Part shown: one piece after another, positions 21,980 through 63,800 of the stretch
Layout: each line of letters opens with the position of its first letter
Position numbering within the stretch: position 1 is the stretch's first letter
DNA from: Gemmatales bacterium
GTDB lineage: Bacteria; Planctomycetota; Planctomycetia; Gemmatales; HRBIN36
DNA: 64,000 nucleotides
NCBI GenBank assembly: GCA_041640595.1
Contig: JBEPZY010000004.1
Span: forward strand, 294,014-358,013
Direction of reading: 5' to 3'
Notes under the pieces: model-generated
What the model saw: only the letters and a program-made list of their open reading frames with translations
Told to the model about the DNA's origin: nothing
Database searches by the model: none
Position numbers and translations under genes: made by a program

Positions 21980-22800
21980 GCCGCCAGCGTGAGCCAGCCG
22001 TGCAACAGCGAGCATCATCGCAAATCGCAAACGCATGTCCGTAACGATCCTCGTGCATGCAACCAGGAGCGGAAGGGCGTAAGCCAGCCGTGGCACACTG
22101 AGTCCGTTGCGAATGCGTTACACTGCCACTTGCGAACGTGCGTTTCTGCATCGAAAAATCGTTTTCTCGCCGGCAAACGGTCGCACTGCACCAAGAGCGG
22201 GGGGCGTAAGCCCCCCGTGGCGCCTATAAACGCAATTGCAACGGCCATCCACGCACACGCATACACACCGTCGGCGATCTGCCGACGAACGACGCTCCTG
22301 TCCGCCGACACGCATTTGCCCGCCCACGGCGGGCTGACGCCCGCCGCTCTTGCGAAGGTGCGTTTGTGCAGTGCGAATGTCGTTTTTCGCAGCGAACGAA
22401 CGTCGTGCAACCAGGAGCGGGGGGCGTAAGCCCCCCGTGGCATGCACTCCGCACGCGAGATCCAAACGCCGATGTTCGTCGCACTGCACTTGCAGATGCG
22501 GTTCCGAAAACCACGGCGGGCTCACGCCCGCCGCTCTTGTGAACGTGCGTTTGTGCACCGCAAAAATCGTTTTTTTCGCCGTTAGACATGCGCATTGCAA
22601 CACAGGGGCGGGGGCGTAAGCCCCCCGTGGGAAACAAACCCCGGCGCAAGTGCGTTACATTACCACCGCGGGCTGACGCTCGGCGCTCTTGGTGGCGTTC
22701 ATTTTCCGGTGAAAGTCGCAGTTCCACCGTAATCGCGTTTCGCTTACCACGGCGGGCTGACGCTCGGCGCTCTTGTAAATGTGCGTTTGTGCAGCGCGAA
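21980..22800. repeat. REP-like palindrome cluster (about 9 copies)
   Basis: Multiple GAGCGG...CGTAAG...CCGTGG units and their reverse complements. Confidence 0.85.
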
Positions 22801-26960: not shown

Positions 26961-27665
26961 ACCACGGCAGACTGACGCCGCAGTAGTGGCAGCCCCCGCC
27001 TGGCGGTTCCTCATGTCTTCTCGGCACCACGGCAGACTGACGCCCTCCACCGCTTCGACTGTCGCTGTGCCCCGGACACTATTCGATTAATTCGCCGTCA
27101 ACCAGTCAGATCACCGACCACGGCGGGCTGACGCCCGCCGCTCTCGGTCGCGTTCCCGGTAAAAGTCGCAGTTCCAGCGTAATCGCGTTTCGCAAACCAC
27201 GGCGGGCTGACGCCCGCCGCTCTTGCGAACGTGCGTTTGTTCATCGCAAAAATCGTCATTCTTCCAGCGGACGCTCGTTGTACCGGCGCCGAGGAGCGGG
27301 GGGCGTAAGCCCCCCGTGGAACACACTCCGCATACAAGCACGAAACGCCAAAATTCATTGGATTGCACTTGCAGATGCGGTTCCGAAAACCACGGCGGGC
27401 CGACGCCCGCCGCTCTTGAAAACGTGCGTTTGTGCAGCGCGAATGTCGCTTTTCACTCCGAACAAACGTCGTGCAACCAGGAGCGGCTGGCGTAAGCCAG
27501 CCGTGGTACGCTGACCCCGTTGCGAATGGGTTAGACCGCCACCTTCCACCTCCGGCGCGGCTTTGGCTTCGGCCATCCGTGTCGCGGTGACTCTGTTGCG
27601 AATCCGTTACACCGCCACCGCTGGCTGACGCCCGCCGCTCTTGTGAACGTGCGTTTGTGCAGCGC
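26961..27665. repeat. REP-like palindrome cluster (about 6 full copies plus 2 half copies 65 bp apart)
   Basis: Same hairpin family. Confidence 0.85.
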
Positions 27666-28983: not shown

Positions 28984-29540
28984 GATCCATTGTGCGATCA
29001 GTGACGCTCCGATTCCAGAGTCTGGGCACCAGGCGAACAATCCGACTGGCGGTAGGCGGTTCCATTCCCCAATCAACGAGGCTCCGATTCCAAAGTCTGG
29101 TCAGCAGGCGAACAACGCGACTGGCGGTAGGCAGATCCATTCCCCAATCAGCGAGGCCCCGATTCCAGAGTCTGGGCAGCAAGCGAACAATCCGACTGGC
29201 GGTAGGCAGATCCATTCCCCAATCAACGAGGCCCGGAATCCAGAGTCTGGGCAGCAGGCGAACAATGCGACTGGCGGTAAGGAGATCCATTCCCCAATCA
29301 GCGAGGCCCGGATTCCAGAGTCTGGGCAGCAGGCGAACAATGCGACTGGCGGTAAGAGGATCCATTCCCCAATCAGCGAGGCTGGGATTCCAGAGTCTGG
29401 GCAGTAAGCGAACACCCCGGTCGGCGGTAGGCGGTTCCATTCCCCAATCAACGAGGCCCGGATTCCAGAGTCTGGGCAGCAGGCGAACAATGCGACTGGC
29501 GGTAGGCAGATCCATTCCCCAATCAGCGAGGCCCGGATTC
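28984..29540. repeat. 75 bp tandem repeat, about 7.4 copies
   Basis: Unit starting GATTCCAGAGTCTGGGCAGCAGGCGAAC at 29011, 29086, 29161, 29236, 29311, 29386 and 29461. Confidence 0.95.
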
Positions 29541-29609
29541 GAGACTCTCCTATGTCCGCCGTTCTTTCTGAGCGTTCCGCGTTTGGTGCGCCAGCCCGGC
29601 ACCGTGCAA

Positions 29610-29996
29610 CCAGGAGCGGGGGGCGTAAGTCCCCCGTGGTGAACGTAGTCGAGTCCGCAGATGAATATGCATGTGTGCTGGGCGCGTTCCCGGACGCAGC
29701 GATGTTCCGGTCGAACTTGCAGCTGGAATACCCATAATTCGCCCAGCGCTCGCATTCCCGACCAAGAGCGGGGCGGCGTAAGCCCCCGTGGTATCGCTGG
29801 ACGCGATGGCAACGGTGATCGGCCCACATACTGCCGGCGGTTTTCCGAGCAATCGCCCTCGTGTCTGCGTAAACGTGTCTGCCGAACCACGGCGGGCTCA
29901 CGGGCGCCGCTCTTGGTGGTATTCATTTCCCGGTAAAAGTCGCAGTTCCACCGTTATCGCGTTTCGCAATCCACGGCGGGCTCACGCCCGCCGCTG
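29610..29996. repeat. REP-like palindrome cluster (4 copies)
   Basis: Same family; internal sequence similar to 31632-31810 and, inverted, to 63800-64000. Confidence 0.85.
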
Positions 29997-30099
29997 CTAG
30001 TAGTGTCGTGTCGGCGTGGAGGCTGGCAAAATCGGATTGCGAGCGACGCCGATCCTGACTTCGTCGCAGCTGCCGGATAGACTAAACGTGGATTCTCGC

Positions 30100-31207: not shown

Positions 31208-31492
31208 ATGGAACTGCTCATTTTTGCCGCCATCATCGGGCTGTGGTTGATTTTGCAAATCTGGGTGTTGCCCAAACTGGGCGTACCGACGTGACTGGGT
31301 GGTGCCTGCCGTCCGAGTTCGGACGAATCGCCCTTATCCATCCAACCAGGCGTTGACGAGCATAACCGCGACCCACGCTCCAAAGGCCGTGTATCCGTCG
31401 GACGGGGCATGGGCAAGCATAACGATCCACACCCCGGCGATGTACCCGCTTCGCCTTCCGAACAGCGCAAGCAGCAACCGGAACTGCATTGA
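31208..31492 (+). CDS. Small membrane protein, candidate selenoprotein (in-frame TGA 31292-31294); 28 aa if the TGA is a stop
   Basis: AAGGA RBS; MELLIFAAIIGLWLILQIWVLPKLGVPT-TGA-LGGAC...; hairpin CGTCCG-AGTT-CGGACG 15 nt after the TGA. Confidence 0.65.
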
Positions 31493-31614
31493 TGGGATAT
31501 ACAGGTTAGGCCTGGTTGACTTCCGAACAGCGCAAGCAGCAACCGGAACCCGCTCGCAAACAAGAAACACTCTCGAACGAATAAGCCCCGAACAGCGTGA
31601 GCAACAGCCGAAAC
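31455..31614. repeat. CRISPR-like mini-array: three 30 bp repeats with two 35 bp unique spacers
   Basis: CTTCCGAACAGCGCAAGCAGCAACCGGAAC identical at 31455 and 31520, degenerate at 31585. Confidence 0.85.
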
Positions 31615-31631
31615 GCCACCGGCCCGTGCAT

Positions 31632-31911
31632 CAAGAGCGGGGGGCGTAAGCCGCCGTGGTGAACGTATCGAGTCCGCAGATGCAATACGCATGTGTGCTG
31701 GGTGCGTTCCCGAACGCAGCCATGTTCCGGTGGAACTTGCAGCTGGAATACGCATGATTCCCCTAGCGCTCGCATTCCCGACCTCGAGCGGGGGGCGTAA
31801 GCCCCCCTGTGGGATGCACTCAGCACGCGAGATTCAAACGCCGAAATTCATCGCATTGCACTTGCAGATGCGGTCCGGAAAACCACGGCGGGCTGACGAT
31901 CGCCGCTCTTG
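31632..31911. repeat. REP-like palindrome cluster (3 copies)
   Basis: Same family. Confidence 0.8.
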
Positions 31912-38446: not shown

Positions 38447-38590
38447 CGGCTCGATGGCACCTGCGACATTTCCGACACACAACCTCCAAATTCACGTTCG
38501 TGCCACACAAGAGCGGGGGGGCGTAAGCCCCCCGTGGTTATCCATTACGTATGCGCGGCGGCGATCGTCAACACAACGTGGGCAGTCTCT

Positions 38591-39268: not shown

Positions 39269-39504
39269 ACACTGGCGGGTATAATGGCCATCAACGGGAG
39301 CGAGTGTGCCGAGTGTGTCGGCAGGTGTCGGCTGGGCGGTAACGCTGAGCATAGCGCGGACGGTGCCCCAGCCAGGAACGTGCACGGCCTGTCGGGAAGT
39401 GCCGGCTGGGCGGAGACGCTGCGGATGAGGCTGACCGCGTGCCAGGAACGAGTGTGCCGAGTGTGTCGCCGGGTGCGGCTGGGCGGTAAGCACTGTAGCG
39501 ATAG

Positions 39505-39840
39505 TCGCCTGTGACATGGCTTTGGCATGACGTCGCCTCCGAGCCGGCCGAGCAAACAACGCAGGGAGGGTCGGCTATGACATCGCTTGGGCACTAAGTC
39601 GCCTCTGAGTCGGCCGAGCAGGCAACGCCGCGAAAATCGCCTATGGCATCGCTTCGGCACTAAGCCGCCTCTGAGCCGGCCGAGCAGGCAACGCTGCGAA
39701 AATCGCCTATGACATCACTTCGGCACTAAGCCGCCTTTGACGCAGCCGAGCAAACAACGCCGCGAAAATCGCCTATGATATCGCTTGGGCACTAAGTGGC
39801 CTCTTAGCCAGCCGAGTAGGCAATGCGGCGAAAGTCGTCT
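39505..39840. repeat. 66 bp tandem repeat, 5 copies
   Basis: TCGCCTATGACATCGC-like unit starts at 39505, 39571, 39637, 39703 and 39769. Confidence 0.92.
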
Positions 39841-42559: not shown

Positions 42560-43150
42560 TGGGCCGATCCCCCGCACTCGCAGCGTAAATGAGCAAGACA
42601 GCGACCATCGGGCATGTTGTCGGCTTGGCGGTCATGCGTGTGCTCGCCGCACGGATCAGCAAGACGGCGATCTCCTGGCGCACACGTGGCCCGGATGACC
42701 GGCGTGGTCAGTTACGGTTCGTAGCTCGGGTTTGGCTGGCGATAGTGAATCCAGTCCGCCAGCGAGCTGCTCTCATGGTGTTACGGATGCACAGTGTTAC
42801 AGTCGGGATGGCTGGCGATAATGAATCCAGTGCCGCCGGCATGACCGGCGTGGTCAGCACGGTTCGCCAGCAGCCACACGGGAGAGATGGGCTTCTGTAC
42901 CACGGGTGCAAGGCCCCTGACAGCCCGTCAGTACGGTTGGCCCACGCAGCGGCACGCGACAGCACGACACGAAGCCGTTATGGAAGCTGGGGCGAGGCAC
43001 GATTAGTACGGTTCACCAGCAGCCACACGCGACAGACTGTGAACAGGCCGCTCCCGACGAACAACAGATTTTGCGACGGCCTGCGACGATTGGTTATCAC
43101 CCCGTTACCGGGAGCTGAGTCCGAGCACGCCGAACTGCGCACCATGCGTC

Positions 43151-43246
43151 GCCTATGTCGCTGAGGAAACAGGGGCGAGTGGCCGTTACGTTTGGGCGGG
43201 GCGTGGGGCTGGTCCTGCCTACGTTGCTGCGGAAACCGGGGCGAGT
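43151..43246. repeat. 30 bp duplication of the GH3 gene 3' end around a 36 bp insert
   Basis: GCCTATGTCGCTGAGGAAACAGGGGCGAGT versus GCCTACGTTGCTGCGGAAACCGGGGCGAGT. Confidence 0.88.
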
Positions 43247-44916
43247 TCCGTGAGCACGGGAAGTTGCTCGCGGAAGGAGAAGTCGGGCACCAGGACGGGA
43301 TGCTTGTACTGCTCCGGAGTGCCGCCGGTTCGGCGTAAGCGCTGGCGATCCCAATCGTGCAGAGCGTTAGCGGCGACCACCAGCACACGGATGCTGCCGA
43401 GGCGACTTTTGCGTTTCTCCTCGTATTCGGAGTTGGCCTGCCGCAATCGGCGGTCGAGCGCGTCGGCCAGCCGAAGCAGATCCGCCTCGCTCACCGGCTC
43501 GTTCTTCTCAACAAACAGGCCGTAGTAAGGGCGTTCGTCGTCCCAGCACGGGGCGAGCGTGTAGTTGGTCAGAGCGAGATCGAGTTCGGCCAGGGCTTGC
43601 CGCATCGCCTCGCTGACCTGGAAGGCAGAGAGTTTTTCACCGGTGATGCTGGCAAAATGGCTGCCCTTATTGAGAAAGGCGATCATCGGCGTGCGGTGAT
43701 AGAAGCCGGTGACGCGTACCACGTCGAAGATGTTGTAACGGTACAGACCGTAGGCGGTGGTGAGGATGAGGAAGTAATCGCGGCCTTCCTGCACTTCGTC
43801 CACGGTGAGCACGGTTGGTTGCGGCGACTCGATTTCGTCAACGGGAATAAACTCGAAAAAGTGGCTGGTGATGTCGAGCACGCCGCTGGAGGTATTGTCC
43901 TCGATGGGGATGCTGAAACGTCCTTCGCTGGCCAGCAGGCCCAGATCGCGCACCGGAAGATTGTCGAAGTAACGGGGATAGAGTCGCAAATAGGCACCGA
44001 CACTGCCGCCCGTCCAGTTGCCGAGCATGGCCAGGCTTGGCCAGACGTCCACCGGTCGCAGGGTTCCGGTGCGTTCAGCAAGCCGGTCGAGTTCACGAGC
44101 ACGACGGCGGTGTCGGCCAAGACGAGGGCGTAAGGCCGAGCGAATCTCCGGCGGCACCTGCACGCCCGACCAGAGTCCGCCGTCGAACAGGTCGCGAATG
44201 AGCTGTTCCTTATAGCGATCCAGCGTGCGGGCCAGGTTGATGATGGTGCTGGGATTGGCGGAAATGATTAGCCCCAGCGGTCGCGGCAAACTCAAGCGGA
44301 GGGCGACGTAGTATTTGGCCTGAATGTCGCGGATTTTCGCTGTGCAGGCCGGCATGCAATAAACCCAGCGAATCACCCGACCCTGCATTTGTGCGGTCAA
44401 TCCGCTGACACTGCCGCAGGGAATTCCCGCTTCGGTGCGAAACTCCTCCCAATCGCTGACCAGTTGCAGGATCGGTCGCAGCAGCGCATGGGGATGCGCC
44501 TGGTACACATGCCAGCCCCAAACCGTCCAACCCCGGCGGTAGTCAGCGAGATACTGGTCGGTCACGGGGATGAATTTGCGGCTGGCCGTAGTACCGCTGG
44601 TCAAAGCGAACATGAGCACACGGTCATCGCCCAAGAGGGCATCGAGTTTGCCGCGTTTGACCTGCTCGATGTACGGCTCAAAATCCTCGTAGCGGCGAAT
44701 GGGGAGGTGCTTGCGAAAATCCGCCAGGGTGCGAATCTGTGAGAAATGATGTTCTCGGCCGAATTGCGTCTGACTTGCACGTGTGATAATACGCTGCAAC
44801 AACGCTGACTGAACCTCCCGCGGTGAATGCGTAGCCTGGTCGAAGGCTTGCGCCCAGCGGCGTGCCTGCCGTTTTGCAAAATGGGCCAGAATCTTCCGCG
44901 CTAACCACAGGAACAT
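43219..44916 (-). CDS. GH3 family acyl-acid amido synthetase-like protein
   Basis: TSGTT...KFIP, ASEG, FFEFIP, GLYRYNIFD, GEK motifs. Confidence 0.88.
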   Translation of the reverse strand: MFLWLARKILAHFAKRQARRWAQAFDQATHSPREVQSALLQRIITRASQTQFGREHHFSQIRTLADFRKHLPIRRYEDFEPYIEQVKRGKLDALLGDDRVLMFALTSGTTASRKFIPVTDQYLADYRRGWTVWGWHVYQAHPHALLRPILQLVSDWEEFRTEAGIPCGSVSGLTAQMQGRVIRWVYCMPACTAKIRDIQAKYYVALRLSLPRPLGLIISANPSTIINLARTLDRYKEQLIRDLFDGGLWSGVQVPPEIRSALRPRLGRHRRRARELDRLAERTGTLRPVDVWPSLAMLGNWTGGSVGAYLRLYPRYFDNLPVRDLGLLASEGRFSIPIEDNTSSGVLDITSHFFEFIPVDEIESPQPTVLTVDEVQEGRDYFLILTTAYGLYRYNIFDVVRVTGFYHRTPMIAFLNKGSHFASITGEKLSAFQVSEAMRQALAELDLALTNYTLAPCWDDERPYYGLFVEKNEPVSEADLLRLADALDRRLRQANSEYEEKRKSRLGSIRVLVVAANALHDWDRQRLRRTGGTPEQYKHPVLVPDFSFREQLPVLTELAPVSAAT

Positions 44917-45029
44917 GACGCCTGGTTCTTCTCCCGTCGCATTGGCTGCAGACCGCACCGATCAGCGTCTCGCCCTGGGTGGGCAAGAGCACACTGTGCC
45001 GGTCACCCTGGCTAACGTCGGCAGCCGAA

Positions 45030-46043
45030 TCACGCAGGCATGACTGCCGGCGAAGGCTCGAAGCTGGTTTTGCGCCGGCCGGCCAGGTGTGTCAGGAAAA
45101 ATTGGCAAATCCGCCGCTGGTATTCCTCGGCAGCGACCTGGACGGCCTGGTTGTGCTTGGCCCCTTCGACGATCCAGAGTTCTTTCGGCTGGCCGGCACG
45201 ATCGAACAATTCCCGGGCCCATTCCGGCCGGATGTAGTTGTCATTACCGCCGTGGATCATCAACAACGGTCGCGGAGCAAGTTGCCCAATGGCTCGCTCC
45301 AGGCTTGGAAATTGACAGCGGCGTTGCTGTGACAATCGCCACAAGGCCATCCGGGCTGCCAGAACGTATATCCAGCGCGGCAGATAGCGGTAGATATTCC
45401 AGCGCAGGCTATACAGACTCACCCACTTCTGCATGTATGGTACCATGGTGCTGATGGTGGCGAAAGCACCGTCGGTAACGACGCAGCGAATATACGGTTC
45501 GTCAGCGGCGGCGATCAGACCGGCCGAGCCACCCCGACTGACTCCGAAAAAGCCGATGCCCCGCGGATCAGCGTCGGGTCGTTTCCGCAGGTAACGGATG
45601 GCCGCTCGCACATCCTCCACCTCATAATTGGTAACCCATTGCAACGGCTCGTAGTCGGGCAAACCCTGGCTGTCGCCGCAATTCCGAAATTCAAAGGTAA
45701 AGACGTCAAATCCTGCCTCGAGCAAGCCGCGACAATACTGGTAACAGGACCAGCGATTCGAGCCGAATTCGGTGCCAAATAGAATCACCCCGCGGCGACG
45801 CGAACCCTGGCCCCGCAGATAACTTCCGGTTAGCCACAAGCCATCGCGGGTCGGGAAAGTTACGTCCTCAGCTTCGGGCAGCGGTTCGCCCCGGGGAATG
45901 ATGAAAATCGGTTTCTCCTGGAAAATTCGCATGATGATGCCGACGTAACGCAGGAAAATCCACACCATCAACAACCCAAAGGCTGCCGTAACGGCAACGG
46001 CGAGCCAAAGCAAACAAGTCAGCAGGCTGGTCAGCCAGTCCAC
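45030..46043 (-). CDS. Membrane-anchored alpha/beta hydrolase
   Basis: N-terminal TM segment, GVSRG nucleophile elbow, IHGGND, GAKHN. Confidence 0.88.
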   Translation of the reverse strand: MDWLTSLLTCLLWLAVAVTAAFGLLMVWIFLRYVGIIMRIFQEKPIFIIPRGEPLPEAEDVTFPTRDGLWLTGSYLRGQGSRRRGVILFGTEFGSNRWSCYQYCRGLLEAGFDVFTFEFRNCGDSQGLPDYEPLQWVTNYEVEDVRAAIRYLRKRPDADPRGIGFFGVSRGGSAGLIAAADEPYIRCVVTDGAFATISTMVPYMQKWVSLYSLRWNIYRYLPRWIYVLAARMALWRLSQQRRCQFPSLERAIGQLAPRPLLMIHGGNDNYIRPEWARELFDRAGQPKELWIVEGAKHNQAVQVAAEEYQRRICQFFLTHLAGRRKTSFEPSPAVMPA

Positions 46044-46177
46044 GGTTACCTCCTCCTGGTGCTCATCTCAGGGCTGGCCGGATATTATCCGTTTCCGGGC
46101 AAATTTAGGTGGTTATTTATGGAAAAATCGCTGGGGTTCAAGAGAAAGTTTACCACGTCTCCGAGCGGGAAAGCCAA

Positions 46178-47470
46178 TCAATCGCGGAATCGGCTGACGA
46201 CCAGGGAAACGTTCTGTCCGCCAAATCCGAAACTATTGCTCAGGACGTGCTCGACCTGCTGCTGGCGGGCGACGTTGGGGATGTAGTCGAGGTCGCATTC
46301 TGGGTCGGGATGTTCGTAGTTTATCGTGGGAGGCAGCACGCCGTGCCGAATGGCCAGAACGCAGGTGATCAGTTCCACGACGCCGGCAGCAGCGATGAGG
46401 TGACCCAGCATGCTCTTGCTGGAAGAAATCGGCACGCGGTAGGCGTATTCACCGAATACTTTTTTGATGGCCAGCGTTTCGACACGGTCGTTCACCTGAG
46501 TGCTGGTCCCGTGGGCATTGATGTAGCCGATGTCTTCGGGTCGTAAACCGGCGTCGCGGATAGCATCGGCCATGCAAGCAATCGCCCCGCGACCTTCGGG
46601 ATGGCTGTCGGTAATGCGGAAGGCATCCGCACTCAGGCCGTAACCGGTAATCTCCGCATAAATATGTGCCTTGCGTCGGCGGGCATGTTCGAGTTCTTCG
46701 AGCACCACCATGCCGGCCCCTTCGCCGAGCACAAAACCGTCGCGGAGTGCATCAAACGGTCTGGACGCTTTTGTCGGTTCGTCGTTGCGGGTGGATAAAG
46801 CCGTCAGCAGGTTGAAACCGGTTACGCCGAACGGATGGATCATGCTATGACTGCCGCCGGACAGCACGATGTCGGCATCGCCGCGGCGGATCAGTTCCAC
46901 GGCTTCGCCGATGGCCTGGCTGCTGGCAGCGCAGGCGGTGAGGCAGTTGTAGTTCGGCCCGCGCAGGTCGAAATATTCGGCGAGATGCCCTGCGGTGGTA
47001 TGCGGTTCCTGTTCGCGTTCGCGTCCGGCGTGGAGTTCCTGCAAGGCCAGCTCGGTAAAACGTCGCGTGTCCACCGTTTGCGTGTCGGGCTGGTAACAAC
47101 GACCGATCAGGCTGATGAAGGCAAAGAAGTCCTGCTGTCCCTCGCCTGTGCCCAGATATAGGCCGAAACGCCGACGATCCACGCCACCGGATAAGACCCC
47201 GGCATCTTCCAGGGCCTGACGAGCTGCAGCCAGAGCGAATCGGCAATTGGCTCCGGCATGTTCAAACCGCTGGGCGTCGCTGCCGAGAAATCGCCGCAAG
47301 TCGAAATCGCGTACTTCCGCCGCTATTTGCGTGGGAAACGTGCGGGCGTCGAAATGGGTAATGCGACCGACGCCACTGCGGCCTTCGATCTGCTGGCGGT
47401 AGAGCTCCTCGGCATTATGCCCCAGCGGCGTAATCGCACCCATGCCAGTTATGACGACCCGGCGACGCAT
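46178..47470 (-). CDS. fabF: Beta-ketoacyl-ACP synthase (FabF-like, catalytic)
   Basis: TACAASS (Cys), NAHGTST and KSMLGHL: Cys-His-His triad intact. Confidence 0.9.
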   Translation of the reverse strand: MRRRVVITGMGAITPLGHNAEELYRQQIEGRSGVGRITHFDARTFPTQIAAEVRDFDLRRFLGSDAQRFEHAGANCRFALAAARQALEDAGVLSGGVDRRRFGLYLGTGEGQQDFFAFISLIGRCYQPDTQTVDTRRFTELALQELHAGREREQEPHTTAGHLAEYFDLRGPNYNCLTACAASSQAIGEAVELIRRGDADIVLSGGSHSMIHPFGVTGFNLLTALSTRNDEPTKASRPFDALRDGFVLGEGAGMVVLEELEHARRRKAHIYAEITGYGLSADAFRITDSHPEGRGAIACMADAIRDAGLRPEDIGYINAHGTSTQVNDRVETLAIKKVFGEYAYRVPISSSKSMLGHLIAAAGVVELITCVLAIRHGVLPPTINYEHPDPECDLDYIPNVARQQQVEHVLSNSFGFGGQNVSLVVSRFRD

Positions 47471-62130: not shown

Positions 62131-63579
62131 ATGCCCCAGCATCGCTACGCTCTGATTGCGGACCATCCGCAGCTGATTGAGACGGCCCGCTGGGAATTGA
62201 GACGACTGGCCGGTTCCAGCTCCCGGTTTTCCGAAACGGTGGAGGGAGGGTCTGCGTCTCGCTCGGCCGTGATGCCGGAGAACTGGCCTGTGGTGAGCTG
62301 GAATGCTGCCAGTTCGTTGCTGCAGGCTTGGCAGGCCAGTCTGGTGCTCGGTATCGCTGACCCCGCCGAAATCCCACTCGCCCACCGACTGGTCCAGGAG
62401 ATCACCCTGCGGCGATTGCCGTTTGTCGTGGTCGCGCTCGTGGCCGAGTCTTGCTGGTCGGAGGTGCAGGAGTGGGCACGGTACGGGTTGCGGCTCTTGC
62501 TCTGGCCCCGGGATCTGGCCGGCCTGACACCAGCATTGCGCCGCCACCGCGAGCATCCCCGCGAACTGGAACTGGCACGTTTTCCCGAAGGTACACTCGA
62601 ACAGCAAATCGCTTTGCGACTGGTTCCTTACACCCCTTCGCTACTTCCTCTGGTCGAGAAACTGGCGCTGGCAGCCCGGCACGATGTCACGGTTCTGCTG
62701 ACCGGTGAAACGGGCACCGGGAAAACTTACCTGGCGCGGCTGATCCACGAATTTTCCTCTCGTGCCAAGGAACGTTTCCTCCATGTGCCGTGCGGCGCCC
62801 TGGCTCCAAATCTGATCGAAAGCGAACTGTTCGGCCACGTCCGAGGTGCCTTCACCGGAGCTGACCGCAACCGTCCCGGCAAATTCGCAGCTGCCGGGCA
62901 TGGCACACTTCTGCTCGACGAAATTGACGCTTTGCCCTTGGAACAGCAGGCCAATTTACTCCGCGTGGTCGAAACCGGTGAATATGAGCCGGTCGGCAGC
63001 AACGAAACTCACAAGACCACTTGCCGACTCATTGTGGCCAGCAATCGCAATCTCGCCGAGGAAGTTCGCCGCGGTCGGTTCCGCGAAGACCTGTATTATC
63101 GGCTCAACGTGATGTCGTTCCATCTGCCGCCTTTGCGTGAACGTCCGGAAGATATTGAGCCGCTGGTGCGAAACATGGCGGCCCGCTTTTGCGCCCGCTT
63201 CCACAAAGAGCTGTTCGACGTGAGCTCGGAAGCCCTGAGCATTCTCGAGACCTACCACTGGCCGGGCAACGTCCGCGAACTGGAAAATGCCATTCAGCAT
63301 GCCGTGCTGGTCAGTCGCGGTCCGCTGCTGTTGCCGGAACATTTGCCCGACTCGGTTCGCCAGCACGCCGAACAGCACAGCAACGGCAACCAGCTCCAGG
63401 AAAGCCGCGATGGCCTGAGCTACAACCGCGAGTTGCTGGAACGCACCATCATTTTGCGGGCCCTTTCGCAGCATGGTTTCAGCCGTACCCGCGCTGCCCA
63501 CGAACTGGGTATCAGCCGCGTGACGTTGTATAAGAAGATGAAAAAGTACGGCCTGCTTCCTCGCACCAGCCACGAGTAA
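62131..63579 (+). CDS. Sigma-54-dependent transcriptional activator (AAA+, Fis-type HTH) with an atypical N-terminus
   Basis: GETGTGKT, ESELFGH, GAFTGA, FREDLYYRL, WPGNVREL, LGISRVTLYKK. Confidence 0.93.
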   Translation: MPQHRYALIADHPQLIETARWELRRLAGSSSRFSETVEGGSASRSAVMPENWPVVSWNAASSLLQAWQASLVLGIADPAEIPLAHRLVQEITLRRLPFVVVALVAESCWSEVQEWARYGLRLLLWPRDLAGLTPALRRHREHPRELELARFPEGTLEQQIALRLVPYTPSLLPLVEKLALAARHDVTVLLTGETGTGKTYLARLIHEFSSRAKERFLHVPCGALAPNLIESELFGHVRGAFTGADRNRPGKFAAAGHGTLLLDEIDALPLEQQANLLRVVETGEYEPVGSNETHKTTCRLIVASNRNLAEEVRRGRFREDLYYRLNVMSFHLPPLRERPEDIEPLVRNMAARFCARFHKELFDVSSEALSILETYHWPGNVRELENAIQHAVLVSRGPLLLPEHLPDSVRQHAEQHSNGNQLQESRDGLSYNRELLERTIILRALSQHGFSRTRAAHELGISRVTLYKKMKKYGLLPRTSHE

Positions 63580-63800
63580 ACGCTGCGACCGTGGGCGGCC
63601 CCCGGGAGGTGCAGCTATTGACAGATATCTGCTTCCTCGCTCCAGCCACGAGTAAACGCTGCGTCCGTGGGCGGCCCCGGGAGGTACAGCTATGACAGAT
63701 ATCTGCTTCCTCGCTCCAGCTACGAGTAAACACTGCGTCACCACCGGACGGGGCTGACCGCTTGTCTATCCCTAAGCTGCTTGCTCGCACCAGCCACGCG
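63553..63800. repeat. Four copies of the activator gene's stop region (periods 76, 74, 74)
   Basis: CTGCTTCCTCGCWCCAGCYACG at 63553, 63629, 63703 and, degenerate, at 63777. Confidence 0.9.

Follow-up and report, generated by a model that had tools for sequence, protein, structure and literature searches.

The 3′ end of a GH3-family gene in this Gemmatales genome (G000) very probably carries the scar of an off-target CRISPR spacer integration, accompanied by duplication of a 30-bp target; we infer both the role of Cas1-Cas2 and the chemical steps. The gene lies in the window, by which we mean the whole 64,000-nt stretch of DNA that was analysed, and the features of the locus and of the adjoining intergenic region are collected in Table 1. 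The two 30-mers at the end of the gene (43151-43180 and 43217-43246) are direct copies that are identical at 26 of 30 positions, with a start-to-start distance of 66 nt and 36 nt between them. An earlier reading made from the sequence only had described one 30-mer as the code for the GH3 C-terminus LAPVSAAT with its stop codon, and had noted a second copy 66 bp away with four substitutions; the first statement is borne out by the open reading frame on the minus strand (43219-44958), the second by the identity and spacing just given. The encoded 579-aa protein matches the Pfam GH3 models with E values of 7e-69 (N-terminal), 8e-24 (central) and 1e-16 (C-terminal), and GH3 here denotes the acyl-acid amido synthetase family, not a glycoside hydrolase.

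Table 1. Features at the 3′ end of the GH3 gene and in the adjoining intergenic region (positions in the window)
Feature	Position	Strand	Description
Gene-proximal copy of the duplicated 30-bp target	43217..43246	(-)	GCCTACGTTGCTGCGGAAACCGGGGCGAGT; last 8 codons of GH3 (LAPVSAAT) + TAG + 2 nt
Downstream copy of the 30-bp target	43151..43180	(-)	GCCTATGTCGCTGAGGAAACAGGGGCGAGT; 4 substitutions relative to the gene-proximal copy
GH3-family gene	43219..44958	(-)	579 aa; protein ends in ELAPVSAAT, then stop; ORF and Pfam
Spacer-sized 36-nt insert	43181..43216		72% GC; once in genome; missing from L039/L040
Older 66-nt-class unit, same intergenic region	42577..42672		30-mers 42577-42606 and 42643-42672, 22/30; L039/L040 lack 66 nt
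72-76-nt-class units	42703..43036		pair 42728/42804 (76-nt step, 25/30); pair 42847-42887/42996-43036 (149 nt apart)

As the duplicated segment includes the stop codon of GH3, the gene has remained intact. The downstream 30-mer is located past this stop, in phase with the gene (66 nt = 22 codons), and would read LAPVSSAT followed by a stop; a TAA is also present between the two copies. Three of the four substitutions fall at third codon positions, given that the downstream copy is in phase, an outcome with a chance probability of about 0.11 (binomial). The idea that the downstream copy is a remnant of the C-terminus of a paralogue was dropped, since the empty site described below explains the copy better.

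The 26/30 pair is not due to chance, since not one of 20 order-2 Markov simulations of the window contained any pair of at least 26/30 at distances of 31-150. Similarly, the 30-36-30 structure is not an assembly artefact, because it is found in a second assembly (L038), as well as in contigs of two public runs. In L038 the GH3 gene is 100% identical and 2 nt differ farther downstream. One public-run contig (X1, 3272 nt) spans 43026-46297 with zero differences, and the other (X2, 20836 nt) spans 43098-46500 with 14 differences and no gap; the public runs with this stretch are labelled as hot-spring and microbial-mat metagenomes. Among the matches listed for public-run contigs we found no joint that skips the 66-nt unit, a result that has no bearing on variants absent from them. 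Within G000 (4.45 Mb, 42 contigs), the 201-nt stretch that contains the unit occurs a single time.

The proposal that the repeats are a target-site duplication was to be checked by looking for relatives without the insert and one 30-mer, and we find two, L039 and L040, which came from a scan of metagenome contigs. Their GH3 proteins are 89% identical to that of G000, and the order of GH3, intergenic stretch and convergent kinase-WD40 gene is common to all three. Based on a MAFFT alignment, both lack exactly 66 nt compared to G000, a length equal to the insert of 36 nt and one of the 30-mers. At this empty site, the sequence that is duplicated in G000 is ordinary target DNA in a single copy, and the lone 30-mer matches the downstream copy at 22/30 and the gene copy at 21/30. 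The G000-position stop codon of GH3 is gone in both relatives (L039:3195-3240 and L040:3201-3246), and the protein is 6 codons longer (ELAPASPERHATHAE, then stop); the C-terminal tail of GH3 is free to vary.

GH3 orthologues were found in 41 of the 41 genomes searched, G000 included, and point in the same direction. The three same-genus proteins (G001-G003; 81-83% identity) end in ELHPTVSVH, ELHPSFSFH and EWVPTVPSVA, each followed by a stop; the first two of these tails have the same length as that of G000, with the stop at the identical position, which argues for a native GH3 tail and against its recruitment from a repeat. Recruitment from a pre-existing repeat, the case named in the sequence-only reading as the one that would speak against it, is thus not what the orthologues show, and their native single-copy tail, together with the empty site of L039 and L040, supports a target-site duplication. 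When the last 30 nt of the gene were used as a probe, a second copy at distance 66 was found in G000 and L038 only. No second copy was found in 28 other orthologous loci with a stop codon (best matches of 13-19/30 at scattered distances; L022, in which no stop occurs within the contig, was left out), and the best second match in L039 and L040 was 17/30.

The dimensions of the locus are those of a CRISPR array in the same genome. A short-range direct-repeat scan delimited a 30-nt-repeat array at C8:2-21080, continued at C10:65228-66999, with 317 + 27 repeat copies and spacers of 35 nt (36 spacers), 36 nt (165), 37 nt (108) and 38 nt (26). The mode of 36 nt accounts for 165 of 341 spacers, and the 30/36/30 of the GH3 locus equals the repeat length and modal spacer length of this array. 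Adjoining this type I-B array are genes for Cas2 (95 aa), Cas1b (TIGR03641, 425 bits versus a cut-off of 304), Cas4, Cas3, Cas5b and Cas7, and a Cmr module. A 37-nt-repeat array (C1:359748-377934, 247 copies), in which spacers of 36, 37 and 38 nt number 81, 99 and 38, is adjoined by Cas2, a group-II-intron-type reverse transcriptase (RT) and Cas1. The genome therefore has both cas1 and cas2, with two Cas1 genes and one Cas2 per module. The 30-mer of the GH3 gene is not a pre-existing CRISPR repeat, as had been claimed from the sequence: it matches the canonical repeat of the genome at 8-9/30, and the locus is not a canonical array, having two copies only, one of them coding.

Two observations concern the I-B module itself. 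The open frame of Cas1b (L034:1441-2817, minus strand) is 458 aa long, with the Cas1 domain beginning at residue 156 and no Pfam or NCBIfam match for the N-terminal part; the homologue in G003 is also a long open frame (477 aa), and the long N-terminus reflects either a true extension or a start called too far upstream. In addition, the leader of about 1.1 kb between the 30-nt array and cas2 contains two ectopic 66-nt-class units, at C8:21408-21507 and C8:21882-21979 (L034:409 and L034:883).

In the mechanism that we propose, the type I-B adaptation module (Cas4, Cas1b and Cas2), which normally targets a 30-nt repeat and inserts spacers of about 36 nt there, would have acted on ordinary DNA at the 3′ end of GH3. 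Both 3′ ends of a 36-nt prespacer would have been joined to opposite strands, 30 bp apart, and gap filling by host repair would then have copied these 30 bp on either side of the insert. The scar would subsequently have drifted neutrally, such that its copies are now four substitutions apart.

The insert itself has been searched for a source, as the sequence-only reading had advised, and the searches of the genome, of viral_contigs and of phages yielded none: there was no second match in G000, no exact match of the 36-mer in viral_contigs and no blastn match in phages. A recent insert elsewhere in the window (31485-31519) similarly had no exact match in viral_contigs. Because no protospacer was found, the spacer nature of the GH3 insert rests on its size and context. 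The insert does not have the features of an IS or MITE, as it is unique, no terminal inverted repeats were found at 43181..43216 and the duplication is 30 bp; nor does it have those of a tandem duplication or minisatellite, as the middle 36 nt occur once and are missing at the empty site. Two candidates, a 66-nt tandem duplication and a remnant of the attachment site of an integrative element, were rejected because the empty site has no insert-like DNA.

To count pairs of this kind throughout the genome, we scored isolated pairs of at least 25/30 at each distance from 30 to 120, with arrays and all head-to-tail tandem repeats masked. The background away from peaks was a mean of 1.25 pairs per distance in 4.45 Mb. 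A 66-nt class comprises 151 pairs (21, 64, 44 and 22 at distances 65, 66, 67 and 68), and a 72-76-nt class comprises 178 pairs (23, 47, 55, 41 and 12 at distances 72 to 76), a count that may be slightly inflated because a few distance-72 pairs may reflect the coding periodicity of leucine-rich repeats. The peaks at 65-68 and 72-76 mirror the spacing distributions of the 30-nt and 37-nt arrays, and a stricter catalogue puts the most frequent duplicated lengths at 30-31 in the 66-nt class and at 37-38 in the 74-nt class. A third peak, at distances 87-96, is due to a dispersed hairpin repeat and is a separate phenomenon. Lowering the threshold to a minimum of 24/30 brought the two classes to 213 and 238 pairs, respectively. 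The identities of the 66-nt class range from 35 perfect pairs, through 49 pairs at 26/30 (the value of the GH3 locus), to about 50 at each of 22-24/30, compared to 0-9 pairs at control distances; this spectrum, from perfect to 22/30, indicates a process that is old yet has continued until recently.

The units are under-represented in long open frames. With one unit removed, only 18% of the 66-nt class (66 units) and 33% of the 74-nt class (61 units) lie in frames of at least 250 codons, compared to 81% of random sites (n = 1479). Their density per 100 kb is uneven across contigs, with 14.7 on C2, 11.5 on C4, 10.5 on C3, 3.1 on C1, 1.2 on C7 and 0.8 on C6, and no units occur among the matches listed for C1 from about 467 kb to 918 kb.

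We applied the same scan to part of the sequence of each of five other genomes. Three pairs were found in G002 (same genus, one Cas1; 373 kb), at distances 75, 75 and 76, and three in G003 (same genus, both Cas1 types; 376 kb), at distances 72, 74 and 74, with no pairs of the 66-nt class in either sample. There was one pair in G004 (same family; 386 kb), two in 320 kb of bulk DNA of G019 (same order, two Cas1 genes and arrays at 71-73 spacing) and none in G027 (no Cas1 found; 400 kb), compared to a density of 29.6 pairs per 400 kb in G000. The scarcity of pairs in G002 and G003, despite their related Cas1 genes, implies that the presence of Cas1 alone does not predict the phenomenon. Among the genomes sampled, the burst and the entire 66-nt class are specific to the G000 lineage.

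A few inserts can be tied to the CRISPR arrays or to the DNA that they sample. In the strict catalogue about 115 of 127 inserts are single-copy in the genome. The insert at C2:174418 overlaps the canonical spacer C8:12371-12406 by 31 nt, with one mismatch and a register shift of 2 nt, and the two are independent captures of one target. Contig C15 (9585 nt) has a GC content of 0.50 versus 0.58 for the genome and is probably a virus or plasmid that was binned with it. The 30-nt arrays have 31 spacers (of 341) that match this contig, nearly all located at the leader-proximal end, a clustering that looks like primed adaptation, and a CCN PAM lies directly 5′ of the protospacer in 26 of 32 C15 match rows. 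The inserts C3:561426 and C2:407699, which represent one duplicated locus, derive from C15, as does the insert of an orphan mini-array at C3:328836, whose two repeats are a 25/30 variant of the canonical repeat. Two other inserts copy the chromosome (C1:732923-732959, 37/37, and C3:406663-406698, 34/36), with CCC or CCG beside the protospacer. Overall, CCN is found beside the protospacer in three of four traceable inserts of the class, of which one is offset by 1 nt and one comes from the C3:328836 mini-array. In GC content the inserts (0.54 and 0.57) hardly differ from the canonical spacers (0.55 and 0.57).

Pooled over both ends, the duplicated segments show an excess of G at +1 (29/56 and 30/58) and of T at +2 (21/56 and 24/58) at their borders, and in the 66-nt class T is under-represented at -1 (2/56). 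The 30-mer of the GH3 locus begins with G at one end only and with A at the other, a point against the proposed integration. GAAAC was not enriched at the ends of the duplicated segments. The segments all differ from one another in sequence and are no more similar to the canonical repeats than random DNA is (12.2 versus 11.6/30, and 14.2 versus 13.7/37). According to PMC6698737, Cas1-Cas2 of Pyrococcus furiosus, with a 30-bp repeat and 37-bp spacers, uses paired non-CRISPR plasmid sites in vitro, on opposite strands and 30-31 bp apart, with a strong G preference at the integration site (G1, T2) and with favoured off-target sites that resemble the repeat. The G000 scars are like the P. furiosus reactions in their 30-bp duplication and in the enrichment of G at +1 and T at +2. 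They differ in being fixed genomic scars instead of in-vitro events and in having targets that are no more repeat-like than random DNA. This last difference counts against off-target integration in G000, as the integrase would have to be unusually permissive.

The intergenic region that contains the GH3 scar has other units of both classes (Table 1). In L039 and L040, the segment that corresponds to 42703..43036 lacks 76 nt and about 225 nt (3 x 75). Altogether 433 of the 659 nt between the GH3 and kinase genes of G000 are missing from these relatives (66 + 76 + ~225 + 66), and since the gaps are whole steps, the region grew by repeat-plus-spacer steps of both classes.

Several further repeats were noted in the window. 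Three 30-mer copies lie in 65-nt steps at 31455-31614, the first two identical and the third 73% alike; this looks like a growing mini-array, in which a second spacer was added to an older ectopic unit. Head-to-tail arrays in which the whole unit is conserved occur at 39498-39837 (period 66, 5.2 copies), 28997-29548 (period 75, 7.4 copies) and 63553-63739 (period 74, 2.5 copies); their periods equal the unit lengths of the two CRISPR arrays, and they may be ectopic units that were amplified by slippage. A dispersed GC-rich hairpin repeat (CCACGGCGGGCTGACGCCCGCCGCTCTTG and its complement) is found at 22644-22780, 27099-27230, 29868-30004, 31630-31660, 38510-38537 and elsewhere, often as direct pairs 79-93 nt apart; the genome has 164 pairs at spacings of 87-96. 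The hairpin spots have very high depth in metagenome contigs, and the family is distinct from the spacer-like units. Apparent joints at 31650-31911 and at 38515 were set aside as cross-matches between dispersed hairpin repeats.

We weighed three other explanations for the GH3 locus against off-target spacer integration. The regular step lengths might be the product of a lineage-specific error of replication or repair, unrelated to CRISPR, that copies short segments by one fixed step of about 66 or 74 nt in the manner of a minisatellite. Such an error would account for the whole-unit tandem arrays in the window with periods of 66, 74 and 75 nt, for the near lack of sequence preference at target sites and for the whole steps by which relatives differ. 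However, the 36 nt between the copies are missing at the empty site and were thus inserted, not copied from local DNA, and the two step sizes and two duplicated lengths are those of the two CRISPR arrays of G000. Moreover, inserts overlap a canonical spacer, derive from the same putatively mobile contig and have the same PAM, and whole-unit arrays can arise secondarily by slippage between copies, all of which makes fixed-step copying very unlikely. A very small, non-autonomous mobile element could also leave a target duplication, an insert and empty sites in relatives, as could an integrase that cuts with a stagger of 30 bp. We give hardly any credence to this explanation, as the 36-nt segment is single-copy in G000 and lacks terminal inverted repeats, about 115 of 127 inserts lack the second copy that would define an element family, and the dimensions coincide with those of the CRISPR arrays.

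The remaining alternative concerns polarity, namely that the 30-36-30 structure is ancestral and that recombination between the copies removed one unit from the lineage of L039 and L040, in which case the site there is a deletion and not an empty site. Recombination between direct repeats does remove exactly one unit, and presence or absence alone gives no polarity, but the single copy is also found in G001-G003 and in 25 further relatives. With all outgroups single-copy, one gain in the G000 lineage is more parsimonious than loss, and our assignment of polarity rests on this parsimony. Furthermore, the two 30-mer copies have diverged by 13%, compared to 23% for the neutral flank between G000 and L039, as would fit a duplication that arose after the split of the two lineages. 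We therefore consider ancestral loss highly improbable; it would alter only the dating of the event, not its mechanism.

Off-target spacer integration can also be compared with systems of other kinds. Target-site duplications of IS elements and transposons are 2-14 bp as a rule. The GH3 scar is like these in having a direct target duplication around inserted DNA, which in their case results from staggered strand transfer, but differs in that the duplication is 30 bp and the insert is a unique 36-nt segment without inverted ends or a transposase. The earlier statement that 30 bp is far longer than IS duplications stands, and the excess is explained by the I-B array of G000, whose repeats measure 30 nt and whose spacers most often measure 36 nt. 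With intergenic minisatellites (VNTR) the units share fixed step lengths and the gain or loss of whole steps among relatives; unlike minisatellites, they repeat only the flanking 30 nt, and the middle 36 nt are new DNA, missing at the empty site.

Non-canonical integration by Cas1-Cas2 ('neo-CRISPR') was reportedly described by Nivala, Shipman and Church in 2018 for the over-expressed type I-E system of E. coli, with duplications of about 28 bp, and isolated arrays are said to have been treated by Shmakov et al. in 2020. Like neo-CRISPR, the GH3 locus combines a spacer-sized insert and a repeat-length duplication of ordinary DNA with cas1-cas2 in the same genome. Unlike the E. coli events, the case in G000 is natural, has type I-B geometry and has an empty site in relatives, and the GH3 scar is one of several hundred, which are ascribed to two different adaptation modules. 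Thus the GH3 locus has the geometry, the cas1 and cas2 genes and the empty site that characterize off-target Cas1-Cas2 integration and, if we infer the catalyst correctly from these, is a natural case of a known process. According to a preprint (bioRxiv 10.1101/148544, citing Nivala et al. 2018), it was unclear whether neo-CRISPR arrays commonly arise in bacteria, and the evidence in two other species was circumstantial. Three aspects of G000 seem to be unreported, namely the scale of the process, the involvement of two modules within the same genome and a choice of targets that is nearly random: our literature search found no published natural genome with such numbers of scars, a weak negative, as the key papers on neo-CRISPR and isolated arrays lay outside that search.

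Off-target spacer integration has so far been known from over-expression and test-tube assays. The GH3 locus offers a clear example from nature, complete with an empty site, and its gene owes its survival solely to the duplication of the stop codon along with the target. Several hundred further scars, of a range of ages and from two integrases, form a natural data set on the rulers of the integrases (30 and 37 bp), on their site preferences and on the birth of new CRISPR arrays, and also suggest that CRISPR adaptation can reshape non-coding DNA. We think it likely that, in this hot-spring lineage, the I-B Cas1b-Cas2-Cas4 and the RT-Cas1-Cas2 have long been integrating spacers almost anywhere in the chromosome, leaving about 330-450 scars, or one per 10-13 kb. 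Intergenic DNA would have been lengthened by whole repeat-plus-spacer steps, minisatellites with periods of 66 and 74-75 nt seeded and small new arrays started. If this is true, CRISPR integrases in nature would act as a major insertional mutagen and would also give rise to new arrays.
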